Below, one piece after another: positions 14,154 through 20,332 of a DNA stretch of 20,403 nt. Source of the DNA: Lentisphaeria bacterium. Lineage in GTDB: Bacteria > Verrucomicrobiota > Lentisphaeria > JABSQK01 > JAWLHB01. The stretch's first letter is position 1, and each line of letters starts with the position of its first letter. The translations under genes were made by a program, and so were the position numbers. The notes beneath the pieces were generated by a model, which had not been told where the DNA came from, ran no database searches, and saw only the letters and a list, made by a program, of their open reading frames with translations. Where the stretch lies: the NCBI GenBank assembly GCA_041690595.1, contig JAWLHB010000037.1, forward strand, positions 62,001-82,403, written 5' to 3'.

Positions 14154-14937
14154 TCACCCTTGGGGAGGGGGAGCGGACGGATTTAACCACGAAGTATACG
14201 AAGAGCACGAAGGTTTGATTTACGGAAAAACGTAGATCGTTGGGTAGCGGGTCACCCTTGGGGAGGGGGAGCGGACGGATTTAACCACGAAGTACACGAA
14301 GAGCACGAAGATTTGATTTACGGAAAAACGTAGATCGTGGTTGACGACCTGGGTAGNNNNNNNNNNNNNNNNNNNNNNNNNNNNNNNNNNNNNNNNNNNN
14401 NNNNNNNNNNNNNNNNNNNNNNNNNNNNNNNNNNNNNNNNNNNNNNNNNNNNNNNNGGGGAGCGGACGGATTTAACCACGAAGTACACGAAGAGCACGAA
14501 GATTTGATTTACGGAAAAACGTAGATCGTGGTTGACGACCTGGGTAGCGGTCACCTTTGGGGAGGGGGAGCGGACGGATTTAACCACGAAGTACACGAAG
14601 AGCACGAAGATTTGATTTACGGAAAAACGTAGATCGTGGTTGACGACCTGGGTAGCGGTCACCCTTGGGGAGGGGAAGCGGACGGATTTACCACGAAGTA
14701 CACGAAGAGCACGAAGATTTGATTTACGGAAAAACGTAGATCGTGGTTGACGACCTGGGTAGCGGTCACCCTTGTGGAAGAGGAAGTGGACGGATTTAAC
14801 CACGAAGTACACGAAGAGCACGAAGATTTGATTTACGGAAAAACGTAGATCGTGGTTGACGACCTGGGTAGCGGTCACCCTTGGGGAGGGGGAGCGGACG
14901 GATTTAACCACGAAGTACACGAAGAGTACGAAGATTT
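14154..14937 (+). repeat. Tandem array of a ~108-bp unit (at least 7 copies, interrupted by an assembly gap), each carrying one CACGAAG-triplet element
   Basis: Units start (TCACC) at 14154, 14252, then after the gap a partial unit from 14457, then 14551, 14659, 14766, 14875; periods 98 (internal deletion), 108, 107, 109. Consensus TCACCCTTGGGGAGGGGGAGCGGACGGATTTAACCACGAAGTACACGAAGAGCACGAAGATTTGATTTACGGAAAAACGTAGATCGTGGTTGACGACCTGGGTAGCGG. Confidence 0.97.
14357..14456. other. Assembly gap (100 N)
   Basis: Run of exactly 100 N inside the tandem array; true copy number unknown. Confidence 1.
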
Positions 14938-15048
14938 GGGTTCAGATTCTGCTGAAGCCAAGGATAAGCATTATGAATATTGTAAAGGTAACGAATATCA
15001 TAAAAAGTTGCTTTCAGAACCTTCGTGCTCTTCGTGTTCTTCGTGGTT
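14906..15048. repeat. Inverted doublet (REPIN-like) upstream of the GxxExxY gene
   Basis: Forward arm 14906-14933 AACCACGAAGTACACGAAGAGTACGAAG; reverse arm 15021-15048 CTTCGTGCTCTTCGTGTTCTTCGTGGTT; 87-bp AT-rich loop. Confidence 0.92.
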
Positions 15049-15200
15049 ATACTTGTAGCGTCAGAGTTGATTTATGCTGGCTTACATCGAAAATAATAAT
15101 GGACTCCGTGTTGAAAGCAACTGCATGAATCGTTAAGTTGCAGCGTAACGCAGGAAAACCGTATCCTTGCACCACAAAGAGGATGAGGGGGCAACGAGGA

Positions 15201-15572
15201 ATGGAGTTTGATTCGCTTTCGAACCGAGTGATCGGCTGTGCGATTGAGGTCCACCGTGAACTTGGGCCCGGCTTGCTCGAATCCACTTATGAGCAATGCC
15301 TGGCGCACGAGCTGAATCTGGGTGGGATCGCATTCCGCCTCCAGCATGCGCAGCCTGTCGACTACAAAGGCATCCGCCTCGATTGTGGCTACCGTGTTGA
15401 TATCCTCGTGGAGGATGTGCTGATTCTGGAGTTGAAGAGCGTCGAGCAGCTCACGGGCATCCATGAGGCGCAACTGCTGACATACATGAAGCTGGCGCGC
15501 GTCAAAACCGGTTTGCTGATCAACTTTAATGTCACGAAACTCAAGACTGGCATCAAGCGTCTCGTTCTGTGA
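15201..15572 (+). CDS. GxxExxY protein (PD-(D/E)XK nuclease superfamily, PDDEXK_3-like)
   Basis: Start re-assigned to ATG 15201 (123 aa): VIGCAIEVHRELGPGLLESTYEQCL (G-x-x-E-x-x-Y), YRVDILVEDVLILELKS (D...E-x-K), HEAQLLTYMK, GLLINF. Confidence 0.96.
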   Translation: MEFDSLSNRVIGCAIEVHRELGPGLLESTYEQCLAHELNLGGIAFRLQHAQPVDYKGIRLDCGYRVDILVEDVLILELKSVEQLTGIHEAQLLTYMKLARVKTGLLINFNVTKLKTGIKRLVL

Positions 15573-15590
15573 CTCCTTGCGGCCGGATTT

Positions 15591-15680
15591 AACCACGAAG
15601 AGCACGAAGAGCACGAAGGTGCTGCTTATTGCAGTACTGTTTTTTTCAGAATCTTCGTGCTCTTCGTGTCCTTCGTGGTA
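15591..15680. repeat. Inverted doublet (REPIN-like) downstream of the GxxExxY gene
   Basis: Forward arm 15591-15618 AACCACGAAGAGCACGAAGAGCACGAAG; reverse arm 15653-15680 CTTCGTGCTCTTCGTGTCCTTCGTGGTA; 34-bp loop; sits between convergent stop codons (15572 and 15742). Confidence 0.92.
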
Positions 15681-18987: not shown

Positions 18988-19019
18988 TGCGGGGAGGCGG
19001 GGAGGCGGCGGGGGAGGCG

Positions 19020-19752
19020 GCGACGGAGTTGTGGACCATGAAGGACGTGAAGGACGTGAGTATGGCGGCTAGATTAGAGCAAATATAACCACGAAGGACA
19101 CGAAGAGCACGAAGATTTAGAAAAAGGAAAGTTGAGCATGATTGGTTATCTTAATGATTAAGAACGTGATCTTTAGTCATCCTTTCGTGATCTTCGTGCT
19201 CTTCGTGGTTAAGTCTGACCGGTGAAACACAAAGAACACGCAAAGATAGAGCAGGAAGAGGCGGGGAAGACGGATTTGTGGACCGTGAAGGAGATGAAGG
19301 AGATGACGATTGGGGATGGGAGCGGCGAGAAAAAATAAACCACGAAGGACACGAAGAGCACGAAGATTTAGAAAAAGGAAAGTTGAGCATGATTGGTTAT
19401 CTTAATGATTAAGAACGTGATCTTTAGTCATCCCTTCGTGATACTCGTGCACTTCGTGGTTAAGTCTGGCCAATGAAACACAAAGAACACGCAAAGATAG
19501 AGCAGGAAGGGGTGGGGAGGACGGAGATGTGGACCATGAAGGACGTGAAGGAGATGAAGATTGGGGATGGGAGCGGCGAAGGAAAGATAACCACGAAGGA
19601 CACGAAGAGCACGAAGATTCAGAAAAAGAAAAGTAAGAATTTATATGTATCTTAAAGGTTAAGAACGTGATCCTCAATCATCCTTCGTGATCTTCGTGCT
19701 CTTCGTGGTGAAATCTGTTCGGTTAACCACAAGGAACGCAGAGAGCGCAGAG
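19020..19752. repeat. Tandem repeat of a 251-bp composite unit (about 3 copies), each with an inverted CACGAAG-triplet doublet
   Basis: Forward arms at 19087, 19338, 19589 (period exactly 251); reverse arms at 19183, 19434, 19683; loops 68, 68, 66 bp. Confidence 0.95.
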
Positions 19753-20332
19753 ATTGGAGTTCGAGGGGGGGTATGAGAGCGGCTCCAGTCGCGGTTCGGA
19801 GAACCGCTGGCATGTTGTCGGGCCTGTGGAGGCTGAAGCGCTGAGTAATTGTGGTCAGGTGGGGGGATGGCTATGCGCCAGTCGCGGTTCGGAGAACCCC
19901 TCCCACATTGAGGGATGCGCCGCTCGGAGAGCGGCCACGGGTTGGAGGGCAGAAAGTGGGGCGGGGCGAGTGAGAGGGGCAAGATGCTGGGGATGGGAGC
20001 GGCGATAAAAGATAACCACGAAGGACACGAAGAGCACGAAGATTAAGCATAAAGATGGGGAAACGTTAGAAATCGTTGAAAGGATTAAGATTGTGATCAA
20101 AAACATCCTTCGTGCTCTTCGTGCACTTCGTGGTGAAATCTGTTCGGTGAACCACAAGGAACGTAGAGAGTGCAGAGATTGTGAGCGGGGGGAGGATATG
20201 AGAGCGGCTCCAGTTCGCGGTTCGGAGAAGCGCTCCCACGTTGTCGGGCATGTCGAGGCTAAGGCCTTGGGTAATTGTGGTTAGGTGGGGCGATGGCCAT
20301 GCGCCAGTCGCGGTTCGGAGAACCCCTCCCAA
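19562..20332. repeat. Direct duplication with 425-bp period (doublet + CGCAGAG element + two REP-like hairpins)
   Basis: Forward arms 19589/20014, reverse arms 19683/20108, AACCACAAGGAACGYAGAGAGYGCAGAG 19725/20150 (all offset 425); REP-like hairpins 19789/20215 and 19882/20308 (offset 426). Confidence 0.93.
19789..20332 (-). repeat. Four GTGG-footed REP-like palindromes
   Basis: TCGCGGTTCGGAGAACCSCTCCCAC-like 25-mers at 19789, 19882, 20215, 20308. Minus-strand consensus GTGG-GA-GCGGTTC-TCC-GAACCGC-GA (tetranucleotide foot + 7-bp stem, 3-nt loop); individual copies carry stem or foot mismatches. Confidence 0.78.

Follow-up and report, generated by a model that had tools for sequence, protein, structure and literature searches.

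MITEs and insertion sequences carry a gene between inverted ends and are accompanied by internally deleted and gene-less derivatives; free-standing homing endonucleases, some of which are PD-(D/E)XK enzymes, are small selfish nucleases whose cut site is absent from their own allele. In REPIN/RAYT systems, as far as the accessible text of two descriptions extends (PMC3116915, PMC3733652), copies of the cognate repeat lie on both sides of a single-copy enzyme gene, and the genome also contains scattered inverted doublets without the gene, whose spacers vary, as well as singlets and tandem arrays of the repeat; the type of repeat co-varies with that of the enzyme. The accessible part of a further account describes these systems as mostly vertically inherited (10.1101/2022.05.22.493013). 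The intergenic TAACTGA repeats of Beggiatoaceae occur as sets of 2–6 heptamers beside start codons and are distributed patchily across phyla; the accessible text of that paper suggests a mobile repeat-binding protein, and its main text contains neither the word nuclease nor the word endonuclease (PMC4679880).

The window analysed here, a stretch of 20 403 nucleotides from a Lentisphaeria bacterium, contains a GxxExxY (PDDEXK_3) gene on the forward strand (15201–15572; ATG at 15201, stop at 15572, 123 amino acids), with a convergent ABC ATPase gene as neighbour on one side and a SIS-domain gene on the other. A preliminary description had placed this gene between two inverted doublets of a CACGAAG repeat with common outer contexts; the arms, the gene and both outer contexts were found as described. 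The upstream doublet consists of a forward arm (14906–14933, forward strand; three heptamers with a 9-bp period), a spacer of 87 bp (14934–15020, 33 % G+C) homologous to spacers in dispersed gene-less doublets, and a reverse arm (15021–15048, reverse strand) 152 bp ahead of the start codon. The downstream doublet starts 18 bp past the stop with a forward arm (15591–15618, forward strand) and ends, after a 34-bp spacer, with a reverse arm (15653–15680, reverse strand); this spacer holds a terminator-like stem-loop (15618–15638; 0.7 such sites are expected by chance). The arms closest to the gene point outward (<gene>), which is a minority layout. Recurrence of the element without the gene about 3.4 kb away had also been reported, and corresponds to four gene-less CACGAAG doublets (about 19087–20135) that lie partly within a 251-bp tandem repeat, with a sister heptamer arm and an unrelated REP interspersed among them. 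Overlooked in the two-doublet picture was an adjoining upstream tandem array (14154–14905, forward strand) of 98–108-bp units, each composed of the left flank of the doublet family and one forward arm, which adds at least seven forward arms (seven visible). The array falls into two parts (14154–14338, 98 bp×1.9; 14457–14938, 108 bp×4.5) and is interrupted by a 100-N assembly gap (14357–14456); its units are 96–97 % identical to each other, and its left flank is homologous to the flank of dispersed doublets. A CRISPR-type or RNA-guided array was considered and rejected in view of this unit identity and of the absence of any Rfam match in the window. No sigma-70-like promoter was found between 14880 and 15800. 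Further purine-rich word arrays with 9-bp phasing are seen within the 251-bp repeat (19002–19570).

Genome-wide, the three-heptamer CACGAAG arm was found 65 times (33 forward, 32 reverse) and the reversed control pattern not once, so chance does not account for the arms. With a looser pattern the count rose to 86 arms, grouped into 44 clusters across the 8.1 Mb; its control gave 2. The GxxExxY gene is present as a single copy in this 8.1-Mb, 97 %-complete assembly and touches one arm cluster on both sides. Thirty of 64 CACGAAG arms are paired into 15 doublets; nine of these doublets, the upstream one included, have common flanks and diverged A+T-rich spacers and are therefore copies of one another, with outer ends that are not sharp. 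No GxxExxY remnant was detected by nhmmer in the doublet spacers of this genome. A sister word is represented by 94 well-kept arms in 71 clusters (type CACAAAG-CGCAGAG-CGCAAAG), none of them in doublets and one of them in the window (about 19728–19752). A cognate GxxExxY gene for this sister family is absent from the assembly and may have been lost or left unassembled; arms evidently persist without their gene.

To compare loci, 310 of them (276 distinct proteins) were collected. Seventy came from a 61-genome sample of relatives and the other 240 were the best matches to three close queries, so the set as a whole is biased toward close homologues; none of the 60 relatives sampled is of the same family as this genome. 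Layouts were counted at the 238 loci with at least 200 nt on each side. An arm lay within 300 nt at 217 of these, and no arm was detected at 21. The enrichment beside homologues that had been put forward for checking was confirmed: applied unchanged, the detector was positive at 72 of 75 loci beside the gene vs 2 of 75 in control windows at 1150–1450 nt. Among homologues of less than 60 % identity, 45 of 62 had an arm. The forward arm ended at most 15 nt from the start at 103 of 147 loci, and the reverse arm began at most 15 nt from the stop at 103 of 145. The commonest arrangement was a gene inside one inverted pair (114/238), as against outward-facing arms like those found here (26/238), so a gene between two doublets is not the typical unit. 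Homologues of 71–86 % identity span eight phyla, which implies horizontal spread.

Dispersed arms were counted per genome as the sum of three word patterns, one of them loose, minus reversed controls. At least 20 net arms were present in 23 of 32 gene-bearing genomes vs 0 of 29 that lack the gene, and at least 10 in 27 of 32 vs 2 of 29, in a comparison whose word patterns derive from the flanks under study and in which related genomes do not count as independent. This agrees with the gene dependence of the dispersed copies expected in the preliminary description. Fewer than 10 arms were found in 5 of the 32 gene-bearing genomes; the direction was the same within each of the five families that include both gene states.

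The preliminary description had further presented the system as one without a tyrosine transposase, which is correct for the surroundings of the CACGAAG arms and incorrect for the genome as a whole: there are four Y1 hits, none less than 29 kb from a CACGAAG arm on its contig. One of the genes, a RAYT-like Y1/HUH gene (C11:187754–188044), has around it six copies of an unrelated REP of its own (G000:C11:187115–188728), a classical REP-like repeat with 164 copies genome-wide that also occurs in the window (19789–19905 and 20215–20331). A conventional RAYT–REP pair exists alongside the GxxExxY system in this genome. The doublets could accordingly be REPINs moved by a Y1/HUH tyrosine transposase encoded elsewhere, with the GxxExxY gene as cargo, and both the four Y1 hits and the 10 of 164 REP copies located within 500 bp of a CACGAAG arm would fit such an origin. 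We hold it to be very improbable, given that no Y1 gene is flanked by CACGAAG arms, that the RAYT-like gene has its own REP and that the arms are not palindromic. Counted by hand, at least 20 arms occur in five of seven genomes with GxxExxY and no Y1 hit and in none of 13 with Y1 and no GxxExxY; arm abundance follows GxxExxY, not Y1. Three genomes with 138–293 net arms and no Y1 hit (G023, G045 and G057; 91–94 % complete) largely refute movement by a Y1 enzyme.

The conservation of the arms was measured in 46 canonical cassettes (1022 pairs below 90 % amino acid identity, mean 75 %), in which identity was 98 % in the heptamers, 53 % in the two-base linkers and 31 % at four-fold sites, the last being saturated. 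Left and right arms agreed in the first linker at 28 of 62 loci and in the second at 20, where shuffles gave 16.8 and 16.2; heptamer deviations were mirrored in the opposite arm in 2 of 24 cases. Selection appears to be stronger on the words than on arm-to-arm pairing, and the phased fixed words with free linkers resemble protein-binding sites; since the heptamers are fixed while the linkers drift, the arms are better regarded as putative binding sites than as REP hairpins. Their earlier likening to REP-type hairpins is also at odds with the folding of a single arm, which is no better than that of shuffles (z=−0.08 and +0.84). Doublets fold strongly (z about −11), as would be expected of an RNA-level element comparable to the gene-bearing 23S rRNA intervening sequences, with arms that pair in the transcript, a gene excised from the mRNA and a protein whose target is the RNA stem. 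The frequent placing of the gene in the loop (114/238) and the excess of matches in the first linker (28/62 vs 16.8) are in keeping with such an element, which is nonetheless improbable: the linkers are mostly unpaired (34/62 and 42/62), the mirroring of heptamer deviations is confined to the 2 of 24 cases given above, outward or same-direction layouts are common and include that of this window, and arms in single-arm tandem arrays cannot pair. Other arrays of this last kind were noticed at G000:C29:11797–12223 and G067:C1:3187251–3188115, with periods of 62 and 105 bp.

Co-variation of word and protein was followed after addition of 147 genome loci and two viral loci (the only two on viral contigs), giving 385 distinct proteins, of which 278 were kept; rows with fewer than four words or with a majority below 70 % were excluded, and the frameshifted L209 was dropped from the residue count. 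Trees were calculated with quick IQ-TREE (148 rows) and FastTree (385 rows) runs. In line with the co-variation anticipated in the preliminary description, 14 words change 22 times on the tree (223 rows) vs at least 84 times in 100 shuffles. Arg120 occurs with C at word position 3 (CACGAAG) in 231 of 231 cases and Ser120 with T (CATGAAG) in 35 of 36, the exception being L452. An aromatic residue 3 is associated with central GA (179/179) and a non-aromatic one with central AG (42/47, five exceptions), and this match holds in both deep clades. One protein (L061) combines Arg120 with the remaining markers of the Ser120 clade, and CACGAAG accounts for 16 of its 18 words. Unlinked dispersed copies behave likewise, being mostly CATGAAG in two genomes with Ser120 (G007, G067) and CACGAAG in three with Arg120 (G064, G065, G068). 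An overlap of arm and codon as the source of the Arg/Ser120 match was rejected: the codon containing the variable base would be 122, and the end codons are free to vary. Independent contrasts for the residue-to-base match number one or two on well-supported branches, and the sign test is not significant; the terminal codons have the tightest linkage to the arms, so part of the pattern could have arisen through linkage alone. The match is best taken as a prediction, not as proof. That the GxxExxY protein recognises the heptamer word is nevertheless, in our judgement, highly likely.

The protein scores over its whole length with the TIGR04256 profile (150.3 bits, cut-off 35) and the PF13366 profile (145.4 bits, cut-off 22). 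Residues E27, D67, E77 and K79 are intact, and Arg120 and Phe3 are those of the CACGAAG type; in an alignment of 95 sequences, E27 and E77 were invariant and D67 and K79 were present in at least 90 %. The predicted structure (pLDDT 95.7) matched Cas4 SSO0001 (4ic1; Z=7.9, rmsd 5.0, 101 aligned residues), the type IIG endonuclease domain of BpuSI (3s1s; Z=7.9, rmsd 2.7, 91 aligned residues) and the Holliday junction resolvase Hjc (1gef; Z=6.5); the majority of the best matches are PD-(D/E)XK enzymes, all with Z below 8. Foldseek with the predicted model returned nothing at E values up to 0.001, a sequence search of solved structures gave no match, and the Cas4 profile matched weakly (E=0.006). 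Among Pfam and NCBIfam profiles, only the GxxExxY families matched the protein, and no recognised transposase gene was found. By its predicted fold and its D…ExK residues the protein is classed as a member of the PD-(D/E)XK superfamily; the predicted fold by itself assigns no function, and the family, which comprises 7481 clusters at 50 % identity (E up to 1e−10), is entered with function unknown in the accessible part of PMC3424549. Seven tandem double-domain relatives were examined out of a larger number found (P0001–P0005, P0007 and P0008); D…ExK is kept in their first domain, and the catalytic D and ExK are missing from the second. A second domain of this kind hints at one active site per two subunits, which would mean a nicking enzyme.

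The mobility of the cassette was traced in relatives. For the genus of G067, 27 genomes were searched and 24 loci examined, of which 18 were resolved. The cassette splits a 628-amino-acid gene into two intact frames; the gene is continuous in 16 of the 18 resolved congeners, and the other two have a decayed cassette at the site, from which it follows that the cassette is a derived insertion. In L360–L362 the downstream half of the split gene gains a new start just past the reverse arm, so both halves remain open. For the genus of G064 (41 genomes searched, 24 examined, 12 resolved), a decayed copy was found in one other genome; in the remaining 11 the site is occupied by different repeats or different genes, or has little in it. 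A filled and an empty version in G063 are distinguished by the cassette together with about 5 nt on either side of it; the overlap is 2 nt. No target duplication was resolved at the empty sites, the between-species junctions being too diverged. Thirteen copies in G062 comprise one with the full gene, ten internal deletions and two gene-less doublets; as far as sequence comparison within this one genome reaches, the series demonstrates that gene-less doublets derive from the cassette by internal deletion.

Some cassettes are carried by other elements. Six copies in G061 (L311–L316), one of them internally deleted, lie inside a MITE-like element whose terminal repeats are imperfect and which has TAA/TTA flanks, and in G062 and G063 (L317–L334) the cassette and its deletion series lie inside a MITE-like element that is itself located within REP-like palindromes, with an apparent 10-bp duplication in L319. 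We take these carriers to be of IS4-like and IS5-like types. As they have terminal repeats of their own and apparent target duplications, dispersal there need not involve the nuclease. The arms might then serve as operators or fold-back elements that control a nuclease gene with another role, dispersed copies being passive products of gene deletion and of hitch-hiking within repeat hot spots and MITEs of IS origin. The directly observed carriage within two unrelated MITE-like elements speaks for this account, as do the orphan 94-arm family of this genome and the closeness of the arms to start and stop (at most 15 nt at 103/147 and 103/145 loci), where pairing could hide the start. It has to contend with dispersed, unlinked copies that match the word of the resident protein and are nearly absent where the gene is absent, and with a nearest upstream arm in the window that is 152 bp away and reversed. 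We rate it as rather unlikely.

The best explanation overall, which we favour with modest confidence, is a small PD-(D/E)XK nuclease partnered with its own binding sites. It is supported, at the level of sequence, by the association, the conservation of the words, the matching changes of word and protein, the insertion at new sites and, in one genome, the deletion-derived doublets. Each arm carries a 7-base word in three phased copies, and the GxxExxY protein would read this word as sequence, probably through N-terminal residues (about 3–8) and a C-terminal strand (Arg120). The usual unit would be arm–gene–inverted arm; at the present locus, extra doublets and the tandem array may have accumulated and so placed the gene between doublets. 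The protein would bind the arms in DNA and then nick or cut beside them, and host repair, by recombination or template switching between copies, would duplicate arms, doublets, arrays and occasionally the whole cassette. To our knowledge, strand-transfer chemistry is not known for this fold, so joining would need host enzymes or carriage within other elements. Whether cutting by the protein drives the spread of the repeat appears to us evenly balanced; the hitch-hiking in MITEs, the orphan 94-arm family and the lack of gene remnants in the spacers of this genome count against it. Of the enzyme-plus-cognate-repeat idea of the preliminary description, what remains is the enrichment, the gene dependence and the co-variation; REP-like hairpins and a doublet-flanked gene as the typical unit do not.

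Compared with REPIN/RAYT systems, the GxxExxY system has the same flanked single-copy enzyme gene, the same scatter of inverted doublets that lack the gene and differ in their spacers, of singlets and of tandem arrays, and the same co-variation of repeat and enzyme type, each as given above from the accessible descriptions; abundance here likewise depends on the cognate gene (23/32 vs 0/29), with one orphan family. The differences lie in the enzyme (PD-(D/E)XK here, scoring only as PF13366; Y1/HUH there), in the arm (three direct heptamers without a GTAG-type tag at the ends here; a palindrome with such a tag in the accessible descriptions), in the usual position of the gene within the doublet and in the occurrence of close homologues in eight phyla as opposed to the mostly vertical inheritance reported in the accessible text. 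The logic is REPIN/RAYT-like, but by enzyme and repeat structure the system is not a member. With MITEs and insertion sequences it has in common a gene between inverted ends together with internally deleted and gene-less derivatives; unlike them, its cassette contains no DDE, HUH, serine or tyrosine transposase, and its doublet ends are not sharply defined. Like a homing endonuclease, the GxxExxY nuclease would spread by cutting and host repair, but its presumed sites flank its own gene and multiply. Cas4, BpuSI and Hjc have the predicted fold in common with it (Z=7.9, 7.9 and 6.5), but no sequence match links it to any solved structure. The TAACTGA repeats, in the accessible part of their description (PMC4679880), are similar as heptamer sets that adjoin start codons and are patchy across phyla, and dissimilar in word, in a period of 7 and in being almost never inverted.

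Within the literature searched, mainly openly accessible main texts, no description of the system was found, no link to a repeat was found for GxxExxY, PDDEXK_3, PF13366 or TIGR04256, no match was found for a 16-base arm fragment, and no earlier description of the residue-to-base match was found. We tentatively suggest, at somewhat less than even confidence, that the GxxExxY genes of many phyla represent one class of minimal selfish element. A single restriction-like nuclease of 120 residues would recognise phased heptamers by a simple amino acid code, in which, for instance, Arg120 specifies C and Ser120 specifies T; by cutting next to the heptamers it would spread gene-less repeats and cassette alike, with no known transposase involved. 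Such a class would be new in having no component common to REPIN/RAYT systems or IS elements, though its logic is REPIN-like and its mechanism is one that we infer. It would explain abundant intergenic repeat families of tens to hundreds of arms per genome and would add an enzyme class unrelated to the RAYTs to those that maintain dispersed repeats. The cognate site and the one-residue specificity prediction make the activity of a very large family directly testable.

Some minor observations concern the surroundings of the arms. Very short palindromic inserts of differing kinds break individual arms at L001, L018, L045, L050 and L072. A small hairpin starting GGTTGCGGC has 14 matches in this genome (G000 contigs C21, C29, C39, C42 and C85); in seven cases a CACGAAG arm is no more than 500 bp away. 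Several phased-word families form mosaics in the intergenic regions of this genome.
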